NCBI GenBank assembly: GCA_949285605.1
Contig: CASDZI010000005.1
Span: forward strand, 14,508 to 78,507
DNA length: 64,000 nucleotides
Direction: 5' to 3'
Source: an uncultured Christensenella sp.
Lineage (GTDB): Bacteria > Bacillota > Clostridia > Christensenellales > DTU072
The notes under the pieces were generated by a model. That model saw only the letters and a program-made list of their open reading frames with translations. It was not told where the DNA came from and made no database searches. Shown here one piece after another: positions 36,553-45,908 of this stretch. Both the position numbers and the translations under genes were made by a program. Position 1 is the first letter of the stretch; each line of letters opens with the position of its first letter.

Positions 36553-36589
36553 CTAAAAATATATACGGTCCGCACCGCCGTGCGGACCG
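36553..36589 (-). terminator. Rho-independent terminator closing the novel locus
   Basis: Minus strand: CGGTCCGCAC / GTGCGGACCG stem with a 4-nt loop, followed by TATATATTTTT. Confidence 0.75.
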
Positions 36590-36602
36590 TGACCGAACGA
36601 AA

Positions 36603-36794
36603 TCAGCCTATGTGTTTTTGAAGAAATACGATAATATCGCCGACGGTTTTAACGTCTTCGAGTAAGATCAGTAACTGCACCAGGTCGAGACTGTCCGCTC
36701 CGAGATCTTCCACGAGACGGCTCTCATCCTTTATGTCTGCCTCGTCGAGCATAAGCTGTGCGGCGAGAGCTTTCTTGACTTTATCGCTTAACAT
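36603..36794 (-). CDS. Acyl-carrier-protein-like protein, internally shortened (63 aa)
   Basis: ..VEDLGADSLDLVQLLILLED.. retains the DSL phosphopantetheine site. About 13 residues (helix III region) are absent compared with canonical ACPs. RBS GGAGG. Confidence 0.7.
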   Translation of the reverse strand: MLSDKVKKALAAQLMLDEADIKDESRLVEDLGADSLDLVQLLILLEDVKTVGDIIVFLQKHIG

Positions 36795-36819: not shown

Positions 36820-37755
36820 TTAAACGTCGTTCCCGTAAAGACGACGGGACGCGCTGAAATCTATTATTTGGGCGCCCTTCTTTGCGAAGAACGGTATTAT
36901 AAGGAGAACGAGGAACAACGCTGCGGTAACGTAAGCGCCTGCGGCGGGACCCGTCGTCTCCATCATAAACAATATAATTATGTTCGCCACCGAGCAAATT
37001 AAACCGATCAATACCGCTACGTTGAAGTTTCTGGGAGACTTGGTCGCGCCGAGCTTGACGAGGTAGTAAATGATGGCTATTACGACGCAAACGACAGCTA
37101 CCAGATACAATACCGGGACCAGGAACGTCATCAGAGCCGTTCCGAAATCCGCCGAAAATCCTTGCGACAGTCCGTCTGCGAAAACTTTGGACATTATTCC
37201 GCTGTAATAGGAACTGGTTATCCCGCTCACTCCGAGCAACGCAAGCAGTCCGAAAACCGAATCGAGAGCGGTGGAACCGGGCGTTGCGCAAGTCAACAGA
37301 CACATAATAACGCAAGCCGCTACCGCAAACAGAATGCACAACACGCTAAGTCCTGCGTAAGGTTTGGCTCTGTAAATGGGTTCGAGGTTGGTCTTTTGGA
37401 TCTCCTCCCGGTAATTGGGATCGTACTGGAGCATGGGCTGCGCCTGCGACGCAAACGGCACCAAAGCTATGGGTTGCACGATGGGCGGCATCTGGACGAT
37501 GCTGGAAGGAGTGGGAATGGCGTTGTAACGGTTGGCGTCGATGGGTCCGAACCCTCCGCCTGCGTTGGAGGCAGGCTGTCCGCCCTGCGCATAATAATAA
37601 TTCCCGTCGGACGCCAGACTCGGATTGGCTGCGTCGTTACTTACCGGGAACGGAACCGTTTCCGCTTCCACGGGTACCCAGGTACCCTCTTTCCCGTTGA
37701 TGACTCCCCTGTGCGGCTGTGCTCCTTGCGGATTTTTCTGATAAAGATTATCCAT
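36820..37755 (-). CDS. Locus gene 9: cytoplasmic Q/P-rich N-region carrying the QP..VPF..QP..Y motif, fused to a four-TM module
   Basis: RBS TAGGAGA. Motif SIVQMPPIVQPIALVPFASQAQPMLQY at aa 85-111. Four predicted TM helices with K/R-rich inside loops. Confidence 0.8.
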   Translation of the reverse strand: MDNLYQKNPQGAQPHRGVINGKEGTWVPVEAETVPFPVSNDAANPSLASDGNYYYAQGGQPASNAGGGFGPIDANRYNAIPTPSSIVQMPPIVQPIALVPFASQAQPMLQYDPNYREEIQKTNLEPIYRAKPYAGLSVLCILFAVAACVIMCLLTCATPGSTALDSVFGLLALLGVSGITSSYYSGIMSKVFADGLSQGFSADFGTALMTFLVPVLYLVAVVCVVIAIIYYLVKLGATKSPRNFNVAVLIGLICSVANIIILFMMETTGPAAGAYVTAALFLVLLIIPFFAKKGAQIIDFSASRRLYGNDV

Positions 37756-37778: not shown

Positions 37779-38240
37779 TTATTGATTGAGGTTGACGTTG
37801 ATTTGCGGGGTCTGAATGTGTTTTGCCGGGGTAGCCACCGGTACCGGAGCGGAACAGGGCATAGCTCCGTATGTCACTTTGGCACGGAAAACTCTGCCGT
37901 ACTCGTCGGTAGCGTAGTAGACCGGTAAATTCTGCAATCCGTTGGCGACGTAGTTCTCGGCGTCGTAATTGCCGTTGACGGGAAGCGGTACCGCAAAACA
38001 AGGTTGCGGAGCTGCCGGATACGCATTACGGGCAGTCCTGTCTATGTCCTTGCCGTAAACGGGAGCGGGCTGTTCCTTCCTCGCATACTCGAAAGCGTTG
38101 CGGGGACGTTTTTTTCCGCAGTGGGAACACACTTTGGCGTTGAGCGGATTGAGCGTTCTGCACTTGGGACAAGCGTAAAAATATTTTACGCCGGCGTTAT
38201 CCGTACCCGTTGCCAGAACCTGTTTTTTGATCTTGTTCAT
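37779..38240 (-). CDS. Locus gene 8: zinc-ribbon protein with a degenerate QP..VP motif
   Basis: CPKCRTLNPLNAKVCSHCGKKRPRNAFEY, paralogous to the ribbon in 42644..43789. Followed by ..PQPCFAVPLPVNGNY... Confidence 0.75.
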   Translation of the reverse strand: MNKIKKQVLATGTDNAGVKYFYACPKCRTLNPLNAKVCSHCGKKRPRNAFEYARKEQPAPVYGKDIDRTARNAYPAAPQPCFAVPLPVNGNYDAENYVANGLQNLPVYYATDEYGRVFRAKVTYGAMPCSAPVPVATPAKHIQTPQINVNLNQ

Positions 38241-38249
38241 CTTGCACCT

Positions 38250-39044
38250 CTAAGCTTTTTTACCTTTCGCCGTCAGAGCGATGATCGCCGTGATAAGATA
38301 CAATGCGGTGATTATATATGCGCCGTAACCTATTTCGGCTTTGTTAACGAACATCATAGCGAGCGCCACTCCGGTAAATATCAACGCCAGCACAGCCGTG
38401 ATCTTCCCGAACAACGCAAACCTCTTCGCTCCCACCGAAAACAATCCTACGAGAGCGGTAATTATCCCCAATAAAGCCCCGAGAGCGAGTCCTGCGGGCA
38501 TTATCAGAGCTTTTATGTCCAAATCTCCTCCGAAAGCGTCGGTAAGTCCCATTATAATGGCAAGGGCGCCTTTCCCGTCCGCCACGAGGATATATTCGAA
38601 ATCCACGAAATAGCTTATCGCCGAAACCGCCAACGCTATCAACGCAAACAAAAACGTAAACAACGCCGAGACGTTGACTTTCCTCGCTTTGCGTTCCTTC
38701 CTCGCCGCACGGTCGTCGCGGTACTCTCCGTCCTCGGCATAGCCGTATCCGTCCCCTTCGGGGTAAGCGTATTCGCTCGAGGGCGCTCCGCCGTTATAAA
38801 AAGCGTTCATCGCTTCCGGCGTATATTGATACAACGGTTGCATCTGACTGGAAAAAGGCACCACGATAAGCGGTTGCACCATGGTGACGTTTCCTGCCGG
38901 ATTGTTAACCTGCGTAGGCAAAACTTCTTCCTGCGGTGCGGGAATGGGGATCGTAGGTTCTTTTACGGTCTCGGGCAACAGAGACGAAGCGTTGTCGTCT
39001 CGCCAGAAACTTTTACCTTCACCGGCTCCGTAAAAATCTGCCAC
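38250..39044 (-). CDS. Locus gene 7: motif-bearing N-region fused to a four-TM module
   Basis: GTG start after GGAGGAG, overlapping the end of gene 6. Motif TMVQPLIVVPFSSQMQPLYQY, an acidic/aromatic stretch, a basic anchor RAARKERKARK, then four TM helices. Confidence 0.8.
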   Translation of the reverse strand: MADFYGAGEGKSFWRDDNASSLLPETVKEPTIPIPAPQEEVLPTQVNNPAGNVTMVQPLIVVPFSSQMQPLYQYTPEAMNAFYNGGAPSSEYAYPEGDGYGYAEDGEYRDDRAARKERKARKVNVSALFTFLFALIALAVSAISYFVDFEYILVADGKGALAIIMGLTDAFGGDLDIKALIMPAGLALGALLGIITALVGLFSVGAKRFALFGKITAVLALIFTGVALAMMFVNKAEIGYGAYIITALYLITAIIALTAKGKKA

Positions 39045-39696
39045 CTTGGTTCTCCTCCGTTTTTATTTTTTTCCTGCCCGCTGCGGCTGTTACCGTCGCA
39101 ACGAACGCAAACAATATGGCAAAATGTAATCCTGCCGCAGACAGCATTCCGCTCGCCGTAACGAAAATCCACAACAGAATTTCCGACAACAACCAAACGA
39201 AACACGCCGCTTTCATTATTTTCCCCGTATACGGTTTCTTCAAGGAAGCCGCCGCTCCCGCCAAAACCGCCACGGTCATTATTACGGTTATCAACCCCGT
39301 TACGGCAGCCGCCGTGGACATCGGGAACGCATCGCCCGAAAACAGAGGTTTTACCGTATCGACTATGCTCGCCCCGTCCGCCGTAAGGAACCATACTTCG
39401 TTGAATACGATTCCGGCTACCGCCACGATAAGCGCCGCTATCGTCATCGCCAGTACCACCGCAGAAACGACGTTGAGCCTCTTTTTTGCGACGGTCTCTA
39501 TTTCCTTATTATAATTATAGACGTTTCCGTAAGCCAGTTCTCTCAGTTCGTTCTTTACCCTGCGGACCTCTCCGAAATAATCGTCGTTACTGCCTTTACC
39601 GTAAAGAAAAAACTGACTGGTCGGGGAAACTTCGAACTTCCGATACCTTTCTTCTCTCTCGGAAAGCAAAGGCTCTTGTTGTTTTTTTCCCTTCAT
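39019..39696 (-). CDS. Locus gene 6: four-TM module protein (no motif)
   Basis: SD-like AAAGGGG. Four TM helices. First outside loop reads ..FLTADGASIVDTVKPLFSG... Confidence 0.75.
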   Translation of the reverse strand: MKGKKQQEPLLSEREERYRKFEVSPTSQFFLYGKGSNDDYFGEVRRVKNELRELAYGNVYNYNKEIETVAKKRLNVVSAVVLAMTIAALIVAVAGIVFNEVWFLTADGASIVDTVKPLFSGDAFPMSTAAAVTGLITVIMTVAVLAGAAASLKKPYTGKIMKAACFVWLLSEILLWIFVTASGMLSAAGLHFAILFAFVATVTAAAGRKKIKTEENQGGRFLRSR

Positions 39697-39710: not shown

Positions 39711-39950
39711 TCAGAAGTCGTCGTCTTCGTCGTAATAGTCGTCGTCAACGTAGGTCGCCAGAGGTTGCTGCTGAGTGCTGAACGGCACCATTACTATGGG
39801 TTGCACGATGGGCGGCAGCTGAATGATCTGGCTTGCCGGTGCAACCGGATAAGGATACGCCGCATTTATCGGACGGAAAGTCACGTCGGGAGCTCTCTCG
39901 ACGTTTTGGGTAACTTCGTAGTTGTCTTTGTTCTTTTTCTTTCTCGCCAT
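39711..39950 (-). CDS. Locus gene 5: 79-aa soluble protein made of a basic N-terminus, the QP..VPF..QP motif and an acidic/aromatic tail
   Basis: RBS AGGAGGG overlaps the gene 4 stop codon. QIIQLPPIVQPIVMVPFSTQQQPLATY is followed by VDDDYYDEDDDF. Confidence 0.75.
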   Translation of the reverse strand: MARKKKNKDNYEVTQNVERAPDVTFRPINAAYPYPVAPASQIIQLPPIVQPIVMVPFSTQQQPLATYVDDDYYDEDDDF

Positions 39951-39959
39951 AAAACCCTC

Positions 39960-41204
39960 CTATTCTCCGAACGTGTCGAAAATGCTGAACGGTATTTTCT
40001 TTCTGCAGAACATACTCAAAATCAATACCAGGACCGGTAAAGCTAAAAGTATAAGCAATCCGTATCCTCCGGAAAAACCGCCCGATTTGGTCAAAGCGCC
40101 GGTAAGGATACCGACCATGTCGCCGTAAGCCATCGTCGCCCCGAGGTCGGTCGTGAACGCCAACCCTCCGAAAGCCGTGACCGCGGCGAAAATTATCATA
40201 AATATCGCTCCGAGTCCGAAGCACTTGAATATCCTCTTCCCGAACATTCCGAAAAACGCCTTGATCATCATTATCAACGCACTGATAACGTAAAGTATAA
40301 GGCATACCGGGAAAGCAAGAATTATGTAAGGAGCGATGGTGTCCGCCATTCCGACTTCGACTTTGGCTATCATCTGATCGTACAGAGGACTTTCTCCGAA
40401 ATTGAGGTCCATATTGAGCTTGTTGCCGACGTATTTGATAAATCCGAAAATCGGATCGAGTACGCCGTAAGTCGTGCCGTCGAAGGCCGGAGCCGTCGTT
40501 TCTTCTTCGCTTTCGCCTTCGGTCTCCGACCCTTCGCCCTCTGCGGTTTCGCCCTCGGAGGTCTCGCCGCCTTCTTCGGCGGTTGCGTCGGCATTGTAGA
40601 GTCCGCTTGCGGCATTCTGCGCTTCTTCGGTCGTGTCGCCGGTTTCTTCGGTCGTGTCGCCGGTTTCTTCGGTCGTGTCGCCGGTTTCTTCGGTCGTGTC
40701 GCCGGTCTCCTCGTCGGTCTCGGCGGCTTTCTTTTCGGTCTCCACGAACAAAGCGGTATATTGAGCGGGGATCTGTTCTATCTTGACAAAGCCCAGCACA
40801 AAATACGCCACGCTCACCAAAAGCACCAGGAACATAAGAAAACATACCGACTTACGCATAATGAAGAAATAATCCTTCGCTTTCTTCTGCTTACGGTCGG
40901 CAGGCAAACGATAATATTCGGTATCGATACCCCCTCTGCCTTCGATGGATTCCACCTTGCGACGGAAACGGGTATTTTCTATGGCGTAATTCTGACGGTT
41001 GCGGAGTTGAGCCGCTCTCGCCCTGCGTTCCGCCCTGCGGGCTTTTTCTTTTTCGGTTTTCCGTTTGCTCTTCTTCTTTCCGCCGTTCTTGTTGTCGGGG
41101 GGAGTGGCGGGCATACCGTATCCCATACCCTGCCCGAACATGGGGAACCCTCCCATCGGATTGGGTACGTTGTTTGCGTTAGTTGTCTGTTCTTTTTTTG
41201 CCAT
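39960..41204 (-). CDS. Locus gene 4: four-TM module protein with a basic N-region and a hyper-acidic repeat insert in the first outside loop
   Basis: TM1 at about aa 113-140. An acidic T/E/G-rich insert covers aa 155-237 and includes 4 x ETGDTTE. ..GVLDPIFGFIKYVG.. precedes three more TM helices. Confidence 0.8.
   Translation of the reverse strand: MAKKEQTTNANNVPNPMGGFPMFGQGMGYGMPATPPDNKNGGKKKSKRKTEKEKARRAERRARAAQLRNRQNYAIENTRFRRKVESIEGRGGIDTEYYRLPADRKQKKAKDYFFIMRKSVCFLMFLVLLVSVAYFVLGFVKIEQIPAQYTALFVETEKKAAETDEETGDTTEETGDTTEETGDTTEETGDTTEEAQNAASGLYNADATAEEGGETSEGETAEGEGSETEGESEEETTAPAFDGTTYGVLDPIFGFIKYVGNKLNMDLNFGESPLYDQMIAKVEVGMADTIAPYIILAFPVCLILYVISALIMMIKAFFGMFGKRIFKCFGLGAIFMIIFAAVTAFGGLAFTTDLGATMAYGDMVGILTGALTKSGGFSGGYGLLILLALPVLVLILSMFCRKKIPFSIFDTFGE
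40623..40706 (-). repeat. Perfect 4 x 21-nt tandem repeat inside locus gene 4
   Basis: The plus-strand unit TTCTTCGGTCGTGTCGCCGGT occurs four times without mismatch. It encodes a seven-residue period (ETGDTTE) on the minus strand. Confidence 0.95.
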
Positions 41205-41417
41205 TTTACCACCCGATAGATTTATGCTCGTCTCGGGACGAAGTCCTTCGTACGGGCATACCGCTACGACTTTACATAATATTAGATAATACTATATGTT
41301 ACAGTTTATCATACACCGAAAAAAATATCAATAGTAAATCCGCAAAAATTTTAGACTATTTTAAGGTAAATTTTCCCTCAAAAAAGCCGTAAAACTTATT
41401 TTTTTGATAAATAAAGC

Positions 41418-41453
41418 GGAAAATAAAGCAAAACCGCACCCGAAAGTGCGGTT
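41418..41453 (-). terminator. Rho-independent terminator after locus gene 3
   Basis: Minus strand: AACCGCAC / GTGCGGTT stem with a 6-nt loop, followed by TTTGCTTTATTTT. Confidence 0.65.
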
Positions 41454-41466
41454 AATAAAAAATTCC

Positions 41467-41709
41467 TCAATAGTCGTCTTCTTCGTCCTCTTCGGGGGGA
41501 AGGTAAGGCTGTTCCGTCCTGAACATACCGAAACAGGCGGCAGGCGGCATCTGAATATTCCTCGCCACAGTGGGAATAGGAGCGGGCATGCCCGTGGGGT
41601 TGCAGACGGTAAATACGATTTTTTGCCGTTTGGAAGCCTGCGATCTCATGGCTTTACCGTAGGACGGGACGGGTCTTTTTTCGTCGGAACGGGAGGTTTT
41701 TTTGCTCAT
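41467..41709 (-). CDS. Locus gene 3: 80-aa soluble protein made of a basic N-terminus, a degenerate motif and an acidic/aromatic tail
   Basis: ATGA start/stop overlap with gene 2. RBS AAGGAG. NIQMPPAACFGMFRTEQPYLPP is followed by EEDEEDDY. Confidence 0.7.
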   Translation of the reverse strand: MSKKTSRSDEKRPVPSYGKAMRSQASKRQKIVFTVCNPTGMPAPIPTVARNIQMPPAACFGMFRTEQPYLPPEEDEEDDY

Positions 41710-42515
41710 TTTTTCTCCTTATAAAACTTATTTTTTTTGTAAGCGAAAATAGTGCACAATACCGAAAGGACGCCGCAAGCGGCAAGGACGTAAAACCCCG
41801 GGGCCGCCTGTAAATAAGCGTTTTCGCCGGTAAAGAAGCCGGCTATATCGCTTCCGCCCGAAGCGTAAATCCCTCCGAACATCGCCGCAAGGGCGCAGAG
41901 GATCAGCACCACGCCTATGAAGGCGAAACCGATTTTTCTGTAACCGCCGTCGGAGCGTCTCCCCGAAAACACCGCCGCCAGCCCTTTCAGGAAACCTATC
42001 AGGGCAAACACCGCCGCAATCAGCGAAGCTATGGGTACGGCGTAAAGAGCGGTTTTGGTTATATCGGAGGCTCCTTCGGTCCCGGGCAGGAAAAAGCGGT
42101 TGTAATAGACCGATTCCAGCCCGTCGGCGCCCAGTTCTCTGAACATTCCGAAGGCAGGATCGAGCAACCCCACCGCCTCGGGATCGTCTCCGACGGTATT
42201 GAATAAAGCCAGATACTTCTCCGCAGACGTCAACCCGACCGCCCCCAGAGCGGCAAACATCAACGTCGCCAGCATCAATACCGTTATTACGACGAGTAAA
42301 AAAGTTCTCTTTTTTATGTATTTCGCTTCCGAACGTCTGTTTACGCTCAGCGTGAGCGCGGACGGAGCGTTCTCTATCCTCGCCTTTTCCGCCATATAAG
42401 CCCGATAATACGGACTGCTCAGATAATCGGCGTATGTGATAAACTCAAGATCCGTCATCTCTTCCACGGATTTGTTAAGTCCGTCGGAACAAACCTTTTT
42501 CTTCCTGAAAGCCAT
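41706..42515 (-). CDS. Locus gene 2: four-TM module protein
   Basis: RBS GGAGG. The loop ..KYLALFNTVGDDPEAVGLLDPAFGMF.. is alignable with ..QYTALFVE...GVLDPIFGFI.. in gene 4. Four TM helices; K-rich C-terminus. Confidence 0.8.
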   Translation of the reverse strand: MAFRKKKVCSDGLNKSVEEMTDLEFITYADYLSSPYYRAYMAEKARIENAPSALTLSVNRRSEAKYIKKRTFLLVVITVLMLATLMFAALGAVGLTSAEKYLALFNTVGDDPEAVGLLDPAFGMFRELGADGLESVYYNRFFLPGTEGASDITKTALYAVPIASLIAAVFALIGFLKGLAAVFSGRRSDGGYRKIGFAFIGVVLILCALAAMFGGIYASGGSDIAGFFTGENAYLQAAPGFYVLAACGVLSVLCTIFAYKKNKFYKEKK

Positions 42516-42643: not shown

Positions 42644-43789
42644 TTAACGGTTTTTCTTCGCCGCTTTTTCAGCCGCCTTAGCCGCCTTTTTCGCTTCCTT
42701 GGCGGTCAACTGACGAGCGGGAACGCTTGCCTGAGCTTCGGCGACCTCAGGCATGTCGGGTACGAATTTATAAACCACCTTGTTGGGATTGTATTGGTAA
42801 ACGGGCTGATTGGGATTGACGTAAGGCACGATGGCGAACGGCTGCGTTGTGCCTCCGCCCTGTCCGTAATAAGTGGCTCCACGGTCACCCAAAATCCTTC
42901 TTACGGCAGCCCTTTCCGCATTTATTCTGTCGTCGGCGGCACGTTCGATAGCCTGTTTCTCTGCGGCGTAGCGAGCTGCGGCCTCCTTGTCGGCGAGTAT
43001 CCTTTCCTCCACTATTCTTTCCACGGCGGCCTGCTGCAAGGCGCTCTTGGAAAGGCGGATCTTTTCGTCTGCGGCCTGTTCCGCCGCAATGATCTGCAAC
43101 ACCGCCTGTCTTGCCGCCACTCTCTCGGCTTCGTCACGGGCGGAAAGAATGTGTTCGTTGGCGTAACGCTCTGCGGCTTTACGGTTGGCTTCCACCTTAT
43201 CCTTGGCTACTTCTTCTATCCCGGCTCTCTCCGCTACCAGTTTTTCGGCGGCGGCGTTCAGTACCTTTTCTCTTTCCTGGGCAATGAGGTCTTCGATCTC
43301 TTTATTGCGACCGGCTACCACGTCGTCGGCCCGTTTCTCGGCTTCGGCGACCCTCTCGTCGGCGGCGTTTTCGGCGGCGACCACTCTGAGGACGGCGTCT
43401 CTCGCCGCAGCTCTCTTGATGGCCTCCCTCTCCTGTTCCAGACGAATCTCTTCCTCCGCAAGGATCCTCGCCCTTTCGTCGGCGACCCTGCTCTCCACCA
43501 GGCGTACCATCTGTTGCTGCGCGGCGTCCCGCCTCTCGTCGGCAAGTCTCGCCTGAGCGTCGACGTACTGCTCTCTTACGGTCTTCGCATTCTGCATCCG
43601 TTCCATCGCCTTGAGATACTCGCTTCTGGGACGACGCTTCCCGCAACGTACGCAGTTGGCGGCGGTGATAGCGTTGACTTTACCGCAGTATTCGCAAATA
43701 TACGACAACTGTTCCATGCTTAAATTAACATCGGCTTCGGTGTCGAATTGAGCTTTGTCGTTCAGTTTGTTTTTATCTGCCATAGTCAT
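42644..43789 (-). CDS. Locus gene 1: zinc ribbon, long A/E/R-rich coiled coil, C-terminal QP..VPY..QP..Y motif and a K/A tail
   Basis: CEYCGKVNAITAANCVRCGKRRPRSEY. Internally repeated helical segments (..AARDAVLRVVAAENAADE.. versus ..AARQAVLQIIAAEQAADE..). ..TQPFAIVPYVNPNQPVYQY... The true start may be the second ATG (43783), which has better SD spacing. Confidence 0.8.
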   Translation of the reverse strand: MTMADKNKLNDKAQFDTEADVNLSMEQLSYICEYCGKVNAITAANCVRCGKRRPRSEYLKAMERMQNAKTVREQYVDAQARLADERRDAAQQQMVRLVESRVADERARILAEEEIRLEQEREAIKRAAARDAVLRVVAAENAADERVAEAEKRADDVVAGRNKEIEDLIAQEREKVLNAAAEKLVAERAGIEEVAKDKVEANRKAAERYANEHILSARDEAERVAARQAVLQIIAAEQAADEKIRLSKSALQQAAVERIVEERILADKEAAARYAAEKQAIERAADDRINAERAAVRRILGDRGATYYGQGGGTTQPFAIVPYVNPNQPVYQYNPNKVVYKFVPDMPEVAEAQASVPARQLTAKEAKKAAKAAEKAAKKNR

Positions 43790-43849
43790 CTCCTCCGGGT
43801 AAACGCATACTAAAACCGATAGTACCCCATATAGGATATATTATATAAG

Positions 43850-43878
43850 TAAATAGATTTTTTTTCAATAGGTTTTGC
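43850..43878 (-). promoter_or_regulatory. Near-consensus sigma-A promoter at the head of the novel locus
   Basis: Minus strand: TTGAAA, 17-nt spacer, TATAAT, about 60 nt upstream of gene 1. Confidence 0.6.
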
Positions 43879-43926: not shown

Positions 43927-45529
43927 TTATTTATTGAAGGAATCTTTAAGATCTACGATACGGTAAAAGACGAGTTTATCGCCTTCTTTCCCCGCAAGTT
44001 TGTAATACGCCGCCCTTATGAACTGAAAAGCCGTCCCGAACGCCTGTTCGGCAAGGTAAGGCTCGGCGTAACCGCCTTCGATAACCTCTAAAGAACGGGG
44101 ATTTATCCTGTCGTCGAAGTCTTTTTTGTCTTCGGTTTCGTCGGTGAGAAGTCCGGAATATTTCATAAGCTTGGCAGGGACGCACTTCTTTGCGTCCACC
44201 CAGTGAATAACTCCCTTGACCTTTATACCGGCGTTAACGCCGCCCTGTTTGCTGTCGGGAACGGCCTCGCAGGTCACCGAAAGCACTTTCCCGTCGGAGT
44301 CGGTTTCGTGGGAAAGGTATTTCAGGATATAGCCACCCTTGAGCCTCACCATACCTCCGGGTACCAGTCGATGATATTTCGGGGGAGGATTCACCGCAAA
44401 ATCGCTCCTTTCGATATAAATTTCTCTGCCGAGAGGCGCTTCGTGCGTAGCGGAATTTTCGTCGTTGGGGTTGTTGACTAGGGTTATGCTCTCCTCTTCT
44501 TCCAAATTGGAAATGACGACCTTCAACGGGTCCTCCACCACCATTACCCTGTCGGCGGTACGGTTGAGCTGATCCCTGACGTAATGCTCCAGCAAAGCCG
44601 AGTCCACTTCGCTGTTGGCTTTGGCTACGCCCACGGCGGCGCAAAAGGCTTTTATCGCTTCGGCGGGATACCCTCTTCTCCTCATTCCGCTCAAAGTGGG
44701 CATACGGGGATCGTCCCAGCCGTCCACCACGCCGTTGTCCACCAGTTTTTTAAGGTAACGCTTGCTCATAATGGTGTTCTTTATGTTGAGCCTGGCAAAT
44801 TCGTATTGATGAGGAGGATTGGCGAATCCGCAATTTTCCGTCACCCAGTCGTAGAGGGGACGGTGATCTTCGAATTCCAGCGTGCAGATAGAATGGGTTA
44901 TACCCTCTATGGCGTCCCCTATGGGATGAGCGAAATCGTACATGGGATAAATAAGCCATTTGTCGCCGGTATGGTGATGATGAGCCCGCAAGATCCTGTA
45001 AAGGACGGGGTCTCGCATATTGATGTTGCTGCTCGCCATATCGATCTTCGCCCTCAGGGTTTTGCTTCCGTCGGGATACTTCCCCTCCCTCATTTCGGCA
45101 AAAAGTTTCAGATTTTCCTCCACCGAACGGTTGCGCCAGGGGCTTTCGGTGCCGGGCTGAGTGAGAGTGCCTCTGGTCTGACGGATCTCCTCCGCCGAAT
45201 AATCGCAAACGTACGCCAGACCTTTCTTAATCAGTTCCACGGCGCAATCGTAGGTCTGCTCGAAATAGTCGGAAGCGAAACACTCGTTGTCCCACTCGAA
45301 CCCCAGCCAGCGTATGTCTTCTTTGATGCTGTCGACGTATTCCACGTCCTCTTTGGTGGGATTGGTGTCGTCGAAACGCAAATTGCATTTCCCGTTATAT
45401 TTTTCCTTGATTCCGAAATTTATTGTGCAGATATCCGTTCGGTTCGGGCGGGAAACGGGTGACCGTACTCTCGCAACGACCTTCCGCTATATCCTTTTCC
45501 ACCACCGCTTCGATAAAATTATTTGCCAC
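43927..45529 (-). pseudogene. glnS: Glutaminyl-tRNA synthetase pseudogene (frameshifting deletion removes the HIGH motif)
   Basis: GTG start at 45529 after AAGGAGG. The reading ..[12 protein letters not shown] then runs into a stop. The +1 frame continues [22 protein letters not shown]... The segment IGHAKSIC expected between the two parts is absent. KMSKS-type IMSKR is present downstream. Confidence 0.8.
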
Positions 45530-45908
45530 TGTGTCCTCCTTTCCCGCATTCGCAAGGGAATGTGAGATTTTTGCTTTCGATTTCCATTTTTCCGTCTTTT
45601 TCGACAAATCCGAATTTCTCGAAATAGCCGTCCGAATAGGCGACGACCAGTTTTTCCGACACGCCGGAACAACCGTACAGCAGGCTTCGGGTGAAGAAGT
45701 CGCCGTAGCGTTTACCCCTATGCGAGGGAAGGATCCCCACGCTTTTCAGGACGGAAACTTCGGGCGTGACCGACACCGAGGCTATTCCCACGGGAGCTTG
45801 TCCGTCGAAAAGCACATACCCTATCTGCCCGTCAAAAGGCAGGCGAAAAATTTCCGAATTGAGCCCGTCGAGCAATTCCTTGTCGTTGGTTGCGGTATAT
45901 GAAAGCAT
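45519..45908 (-). CDS. GNAT family N-acetyltransferase (small)
   Basis: ..[19 protein letters not shown].. acetyl-CoA-binding-like motif. RBS GGAGAAGA. The 3' end overlaps the glnS start by 11 nt. Confidence 0.6.

Follow-up and report, generated by a model that had tools for sequence, protein, structure and literature searches.

In the window, by which we mean the whole 64-kb stretch of DNA from an uncultured Christensenella sp. analysed here, nine genes (g1 to g9, all read directly from it as lying on the minus strand) combine two modules: a bundle of four transmembrane (TM) helices, called TM4 below, and a motif of about 35 residues. We tentatively favour, at somewhat short of even odds, the reading that this locus encodes a lineage-specific membrane assembly whose paralogous four-helix (tetraspan-type) subunits would share one cytoplasmic docking or assembly peptide for a common site, supplied either in cis or in trans. 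Supply in cis would come from the proteins in which the peptide is fused N-terminally to TM4 (g7, g9, and g1 of most relatives). Supply in trans would come from the small soluble carriers g3, g5, and g8, putative stand-alone copies of a g7-like N-terminal cytoplasmic region with its basic head, peptide, and acidic tail, and g3 and g5 would be co-translated with the TM4 gene that precedes each of them.

The motif is rich in proline and glutamine and otherwise hydrophobic (consensus ..PVPVA.P..FIQLTPIVQPIxLVPYSTQxQPL..[acidic]). A motif profile built from g9 homologues matched, within the window, g9 (expect value, E, 2e-26), g5 (4e-11 to 6.5e-11), g7 (3e-7), and g1 (1e-5); the matches are confined to the g1-g9 locus, and their recurrence there is far beyond chance. 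Across 30 g9 homologues the stretch NAIPTPSSIVQ[LM]PPIVQPIALVP[YF].SQNQPLLQYDP is nearly invariant and the TM4 part varies, with almost all of the 18 invariant columns falling inside the motif; no other element of the system is as strongly conserved. Since six paralogues of the locus keep a near-identical sequence that is predicted to be disordered alone, the motif would most likely serve in docking or assembly, with one common site as its target. An amyloid-signalling (RHIM/BASS-like) reading of the motif was judged unlikely, by reasoning from its many prolines.

The sequence-only reading had described g2 and g4 as TM4 genes without the motif and g7 and g9 as carrying it N-terminally to TM4, and both descriptions were confirmed. 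The 269-aa g2 protein (41706-42515) has four hydrophobic helices behind an N-terminal region of its own of about 70 aa, and g4 (39960-41204, 414 aa, TAG stop) has TM1, an acidic repeat-containing outer loop, and three more TM helices. In g7 (38250-39044, 264 aa) the motif occupies residues 55-77 and is followed by an acidic linker and TM4, with TM1 at about residue 125; in g9 (36820-37755, 311 aa) an N-terminal beta-hairpin region precedes the motif (residues 74-114) and TM4 (TM1 at about residue 136). We used a profile of the TM4 region of the g9 family, motif excluded, which matched g2 (1e-12) and g4 (5e-12), matched g7 weakly (8e-3), and did not match g6. On this profile evidence the TM4 modules of g2 and g4 are homologous to that of g9. 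The N-terminus is predicted to be cytoplasmic in all TM4 paralogues.

Both g2 and g4 are followed at once by a small gene. The TGA stop of g2 and the ATG of g3 overlap as ATGA (41706-41709) with AAGGAG upstream, and g4 is separated from g5 by 9 nt (TAG GAGGGTTTT ATG), where a GGAGG Shine-Dalgarno sequence overlaps the stop codon; both junctions had been noted before and were confirmed from the sequence. The g3 protein (41467-41709, 80 aa) consists of a basic head (MSKKTSRSDEKR...), a half-degenerate motif, and the acidic tail EEDEEDDY, and g5 (39711-39950, 79 aa) of a basic head, the full motif stretch IIQLPPIVQPIVMVPFSTQQQPL, and the acidic and aromatic tail DDDYYDEDDDF. The earlier description of both as ~80-aa proteins with basic head, motif, and acidic tail therefore stands for g5, whereas in the window's g3 the head and tail are present but only the first half of the motif survives (PAPIPTVARNIQMPP), its second half (IVQPIxxVPYSxQxQP) being replaced; for this reason g3 has no significant match to the motif profile (E = 6-10). 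The g3 orthologues of other species have the full motif. In general, the small-protein family shows a K/R-rich head, the stretch ..PVPVA.PADFIQLTPIVQPIPLVPYS[ST]Q.QPLA.[FY], and a D/E/Y-rich tail, and the layout of basic head, motif, and acidic stretch is common to g3, g5, and the N-terminal cytoplasmic region of g7.

The small genes g3 and g5 are real and under purifying selection. In pairwise comparison with the closest relative, locus L004, g5 has 94% identity and a ratio of nonsynonymous to synonymous substitution rates (dN/dS) of 0.05, and g3 has 59% identity and a dN/dS of 0.28; g2 stands at 75% and 0.14, and g2 and g3 are the fastest-evolving genes of the locus. The length of g3 and its ATGA overlap are conserved, and all 13 g5 homologues measure 72-101 aa. 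We also surveyed 80 loci, one genome per species (~80 species-level genomes, all of them metagenome-assembled genomes, MAGs, of Christensenellales type), in which the gene order is conserved from glnS to acpP-rpmG-secE-nusG. The median gap in these related loci is 17 nt from g2 to g3 and 27 nt from g4 to g5, and 211 nt from g3 to g4. In the window, the g3-g4 spacer contains a terminator-like hairpin with a T-run directly 3' of g3 (41432-41453; found by sequence scan) and a promoter-like site 5' of g4 (41303-41331; 9/12 with TG, a consensus match only), both on the minus strand. Judged by these junctions, g2-g3 and g4-g5 would form two conserved expression units, with translation of g3 and g5 coupled to that of the TM4 gene ahead. 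The proposal that tight coupling gives each pair matched expression is borne out as plausible, because dozens of species keep a TM4 gene and the small motif gene after it closely spaced. As it happens, g4 and g5 share a frame and are separated by TAG GAG GGT TTT (39950-39962), such that read-through of the stop would yield a TM4-then-motif fusion; the arrangement is probably incidental, since many relatives have a gap whose length is not divisible by three.

The g9 family, 140 homologues strong, consists entirely of "hypothetical" or unnamed proteins from Clostridia or Christensenellales-type metagenome bins, and the locus is restricted to this one lineage of gut Clostridia. Together, these results demonstrate the modular anatomy of the locus, the homology of its modules, the conservation of its units, and their restriction to one lineage.

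Fusion census and one-to-one pairing

The inference of functional linkage from domain fusion and fission, known as the Rosetta-stone approach, was reportedly set out by Marcotte et al. and Enright et al. in 1999. Applied strictly here, it would mean that g3 binds g2 and g5 binds g4 one-to-one as non-covalent equivalents of g7 and g9, the coupling enforcing a 1:1 stoichiometry. The window holds what such an inference starts from, namely separate modules in one genome (g2 and g4 with TM4 only, g3 and g5 with the motif only) and single polypeptides, g7 and g9, carrying homologues of both; a fusion orthologous to a proposed split pair, or in the same module order, was not found.

We searched the motif profile against 1.84 billion protein cluster representatives, which returned 148 motif proteins. 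Small proteins with the motif only account for 66 of these, and 65 carry the motif N-terminally to a TM bundle; 11 are longer soluble proteins, 7 of them with zinc ribbons (sequences checked), and the last 6 comprise five apparent fragments and one protein with the motif scored within the TM region. The motif was C-terminal to a TM bundle in none of the 148 representatives, none of 52 g4 homologues, and none of the ~80 loci. Likewise, no g4-g5 fusion exists among the 52 g4 homologues or the 13 g5 homologues, since the former measure 303-447 aa and the latter keep to the lengths given above. Every fusion thus runs from motif to TM4, the reverse of the split pairs g2-g3 and g4-g5, which run from TM4 to motif. 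Because TM4-then-motif fusions are absent from all three collections, the fusions found are paralogues with the opposite module order and not fused counterparts of g2+g3 or g4+g5. Survey of orthologous loci for fused and split states, which the sequence-only reading had proposed as a check, therefore gave a divided answer: the TM4-then-motif gene order is conserved, but fused g2+g3 or g4+g5 was never found.

Pairing by module order and position would equally well give g1 with g2, g3 with g4, and g5 with g6. These same-order fission pairs were not adopted, given the spacer of ~200 nt between g3 and g4 with its terminator in the window, which speaks against co-translation of g3 with g4, and the restriction of g6 to one clade.

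One-to-one pairing is possible, and several features argue for it. The spacing within each pair is tight and conserved, down to the ATGA overlap and the Shine-Dalgarno sequence over the stop codon; the terminator right after g3 would make g2-g3 one unit; g2 and g3 evolve fastest jointly; the cytoplasmic C-terminal tail of g4, just ahead of g5, is highly conserved; and a distant clade (L080-L083, MAGs labelled Clostridiales bacterium) repeats the TM4-then-motif gene order, its TM4-only genes alternating with motif genes. However, neither g2 nor g4 is a bare TM4 module, each having an N-terminal region of its own (70-120 aa), and the motif also sits on zinc-ribbon or soluble proteins that lack TM4, such as g1 and g8 of the window. 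With these and the reversed order of all fusions, and with the results that follow, we consider strict pairing unlikely. Split and fused versions do stand side by side, as had been observed, but as proof of a specific g2-g3 and g4-g5 partnership they fail on the reversed order, the loss of g3, and the undocked motif.

Of the following points, the first three weigh against one-to-one pairing, and all weigh against the shared-peptide assembly that we favour. First, in a six-frame motif search of the 47 loci having both g2 and g4, a g3-type gene was present in 27, degenerate in 3 (the window, L004, and L012), and missing from the rest, so that g2 is kept with g3 absent (about 17 loci) or degenerate in about 20 of 47 (~40%). 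Many lineages thus do without g3, and the window has only a half-degenerate copy; the observation that the earlier reading had named as damaging, loci without the small genes, was made in part for g3; g5 was kept in 54 of 57 loci. Second, mirror-tree analysis of rate covariation in 21 genomes, which we treat as uninformative, revealed nothing specific to the pairs: partial correlations were 0.20 for g2-g3 and 0.38 for g4-g5, no higher than for the unrelated pairs g2-g9 (0.56) and g5-g7 (0.42). Third, no docking of the motif on its own TM4 was predicted in AlphaFold2 (AF2) monomer models of g7 and g9, which were computed from shallow alignments of 25 and 30 sequences, respectively; this counts against a simple contact between peptide and TM4. 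In both models the four-helix bundle reaches a predicted local distance difference test score (pLDDT) of about 90 or higher and the motif is unstructured (pLDDT 43-56); in g9, residues 130-300 exceed 90 and residues 59-103 fall below 50, and in g7 TM4 is confident and the motif lies at about 50. Fourth, searches of Pfam, NCBIfam, PADLOC, PHROGs, and PDB sequence profiles with the nine proteins and their homologues gave no significant match beyond zinc ribbons. Finally, the predicted binding site of the peptide could lie outside the locus.

Candidate roles for the peptide

The low-confidence motif of the g9 and g7 models would suit a peptide that takes on structure only when bound. Together with its conservation, this leads us to infer that the peptide binds an assembly site and reaches the motif-less subunits on the small proteins, and a functional linkage of motif and TM4 genes is likely. 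Two further conserved elements were seen in the motif-less subunits: the g4 tail ahead of g5 reads KKIPFSIFD (window 39960-40000) and is strongly conserved, and an SPYY element is conserved in the N-terminal region of g2 (residues 34-38; window 42400-42415). The motif could dock on one or the other of them.

An explanation that we regard as improbable is that the motif-only proteins are regulators resembling microProteins, which would compete as decoys with the fused paralogues for a common site and thereby tune assembly. The near-identical peptide on six paralogues would imply just such a shared site, the small proteins are exact stand-alone copies of the g7-like N-terminal region, and the number and state of the small genes vary by lineage, with g3 lost, the g8 motif truncated, and a motif gene duplicated in L082. 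However, the translational coupling of small genes to the preceding TM4 gene suggests that the proteins are made together in stoichiometric amounts and not titrated under regulation, and g5 is almost universal and highly constrained.

We give an equally small chance to the alternative in which the partner of the motif is a conserved protein whose gene lies outside the locus, such as a component of the envelope or division machinery, with TM4 serving as an anchor only. Motif and TM4 would then never touch, and fusion or separation would only set whether the ligand is tethered to the membrane. The disordered, undocked motif of both fused AF2 models is in line with this, as are the soluble zinc-ribbon and coiled-coil proteins that carry the motif but lack TM4, and a short linear motif with one fixed partner would typically be conserved to such an extreme degree among paralogues. 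Against it, all motif carriers were found in one type of locus, which fits a self-contained system better, and no candidate partner was identified.

A more elaborate form of the shared-peptide assembly, which we hold to be a long shot, is that the peptide joins the tetraspan subunits, together with the soluble carriers, in an ordered hetero-oligomeric scaffold, each motif docking on a neighbouring subunit. Docking on neighbours would account for motif genes being coupled to the TM4 gene ahead of them but fused to the one that follows, and such a scaffold would be a bacterial, lineage-specific counterpart of the tetraspanin-type membrane-organising web without a described relative. Least of all do we credit the idea that the small ORFs (open reading frames) are functionless, decaying remnants of gene fission, which the fast evolution and half-lost motif of g3 in the window and L004 and the absence of g3 from many loci might suggest, but which is contradicted by the constraint, near-universal presence, and conserved head-motif-tail layout of g5 and by the persisting selection, length, and ATGA overlap of g3.

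These genes, annotated as hypothetical only, form a strictly syntenic locus of eight or nine genes across a large group of uncultured gut Clostridia, and six near-invariant copies of a peptide in one operon, both fused and free, provide a clean natural experiment in the sharing of an interaction module. The partner of the peptide, if found, would give a function to the whole family and would provide a worked example of the need for orthology and same-order checks in Rosetta-stone pairing.

Remaining genes and setting of the locus

The locus is bounded by glnS (43927-45381) on one side and by a short gene resembling acyl carrier protein (ACP), rpmG, secE, and nusG on the other. In related loci the order is glnS, g1 (usually with TM4), g2, g3, the long spacer, g4, g5, g6 (in the window's clade only), g7, g8, g9, and the ACP gene, with median gaps of 65 nt from g5 to g7, 17.5 nt from g5 to g6, 4.5 nt from g6 to g7, and 17 nt from g8 to g9. 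In the distant clade L080-L083, the TM4-only genes encode 149-241 aa without the N-terminal region and the motif genes 64-97 aa; there is also one fused gene with a Cys-rich N-terminus.

The first gene, g1 (42644-43789, minus strand, 381 aa), encodes a zinc ribbon, a long A/E/R-rich helical region, and the motif (QPFAIVPYVNPNQPVYQY), without TM4, and is preceded by a promoter-like site (43840-43868, minus strand; TTGAAA-17-TATAAT, 11/12, a consensus match only). It corresponds to residues 11-399 of a 598-aa protein of L001 (L001 3572-5368) that runs on into TM4. Among 45 g1-like proteins, 39 combine zinc ribbon, motif, and TM4, and 6 lack TM4 (those of the window, L004, L005, L013, L018, and L038), so that from these alignments the absence of TM4 in the window's g1 looks like a secondary loss in its clade. 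This is the only contrast of fused and unfused states found within one and the same gene, and it joins the motif to a TM4 that lies downstream of it.

The g8 gene (37779-38240, minus strand) encodes a small soluble protein of 153 aa that has a zinc ribbon, the element DEYGRVF, and a motif that is truncated (PVPVATPAKHIQT...). The ribbon, at the N-terminus, resembles the one in g1 (BLAST E 5e-6) and, like the truncation of the motif, belongs to the g8 proteins of the window's clade; in 39 of 69 relatives, g8 has a full C-terminal motif and no zinc ribbon. The element DEYGRV[FY] is kept in all g8 proteins. A WW-domain-like reading of this element and of the N-terminal hairpin of g9 was dropped, having no Pfam support.

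Between the g4-g5 unit and g7 lies g6 (39019-39696, minus strand, 225 aa), a TM4 gene without the motif that begins 14 nt past g5 and overlaps g7. It is closest to the TM4 of g7 and is confined to the clade near the window. The very acidic loop that joins TM1 to TM2 in g4 contains TEETGDT repeats, encoded by 5.2 tandem copies of a 21-nt unit (40623-40733); close g4 homologues (85-97% identity) are 28-40 aa shorter (374-386 aa), and the copy number of the repeat probably varies. A 366-aa Arg-rich ORF that spans g4 and g5 in another frame (39745-40845, minus strand) arises when the repeat-rich sequence that codes for acidic residues is read in a shifted frame, and is almost certainly not a gene.

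The short ACP-like gene (36603-36794, minus strand) starts 25 nt past g9, ahead of a terminator at 36565-36590, and may be co-transcribed with g4-g9. Its product has only 63 aa and scores under the family cut-off against a 78-position ACP model, of which it matches positions 5-49; the corresponding place after g9 is taken in related loci by a PP-binding gene of 73-77 aa. For the locus as a whole, the predicted transcription units are g1-g3 and g4-acpP. At the other end, a ~125-aa protein (45519-45908, minus strand) is encoded 5' of glnS in most loci and matches an ArsN2 acetyltransferase-like model weakly (E 2e-4). The g1-like gene of the distant clade has a protein of about the same length encoded directly 5' of it (L082 6385-6777; L083 2987-3358), whose likeness to the window's protein was judged by eye. 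This acetyltransferase-like protein may be part of the same conserved neighbourhood. An Rfam scan of the locus revealed no RNA family.

Comparison with known systems

The family is undescribed, and we found nothing on it in the literature; fusion and fission of modules among operon paralogues is in itself a known phenomenon. Matches to the SUR7, DUF996, and DUF2207_C profiles stayed below threshold. There was no significant PADLOC or PHROGs match that would point to anti-phage defence or a phage, and the locus is core-syntenic, from glnS to acpP-rpmG-secE-nusG. Compared with a classical Rosetta-stone case, the likeness is that the modules occur both separate and fused, with both states in the same genome and operon; the difference is that the fused proteins here are paralogues, not fused orthologues, and that their module order is reversed relative to the split pairs.

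MicroProteins, or small interfering peptides, are small paralogues that keep only the interaction module of larger proteins. In this respect g3, g5, and g8 resemble them, since each is a short, free-standing version of the interaction-type region found in larger paralogues from neighbouring genes, but g3- and g5-type genes are translationally coupled within an operon, and the likeness is conceptual. The motif also resembles short linear motifs in being near-invariant, proline-rich, flanked by basic and acidic low-complexity stretches, and disordered in monomer models, although at ~35 residues it is longer than is typical of them.

The nearest analogy, and we regard it as an analogy only, is with LetA and PqiA, whose modules, encoded by a single gene or by two neighbouring ones, are a cytoplasmic zinc ribbon and a four-helix TM domain of tetraspanin-like type (PMC13017536). 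No PqiA family model in Pfam or NCBIfam matched the nine proteins or 40 homologues, the locus has no MCE partner gene, its hosts are Clostridia, and LetA has no counterpart of the 35-residue motif. In the g1 proteins of 39 relatives a coiled coil and the motif lie between zinc ribbon and TM4, and the window's g1 has no TM4. On the side of likeness, the only membrane proteins matched in a Foldseek comparison of the g9 model with the PDB were TARPs and claudin (E 0.2-0.6, not significant), which belong to the fold class to which LetA was assigned, and the g1-type proteins of relatives, like LetA and PqiA, join a cytoplasmic zinc ribbon to a four-helix TM domain, with the modules either fused or adjacent.

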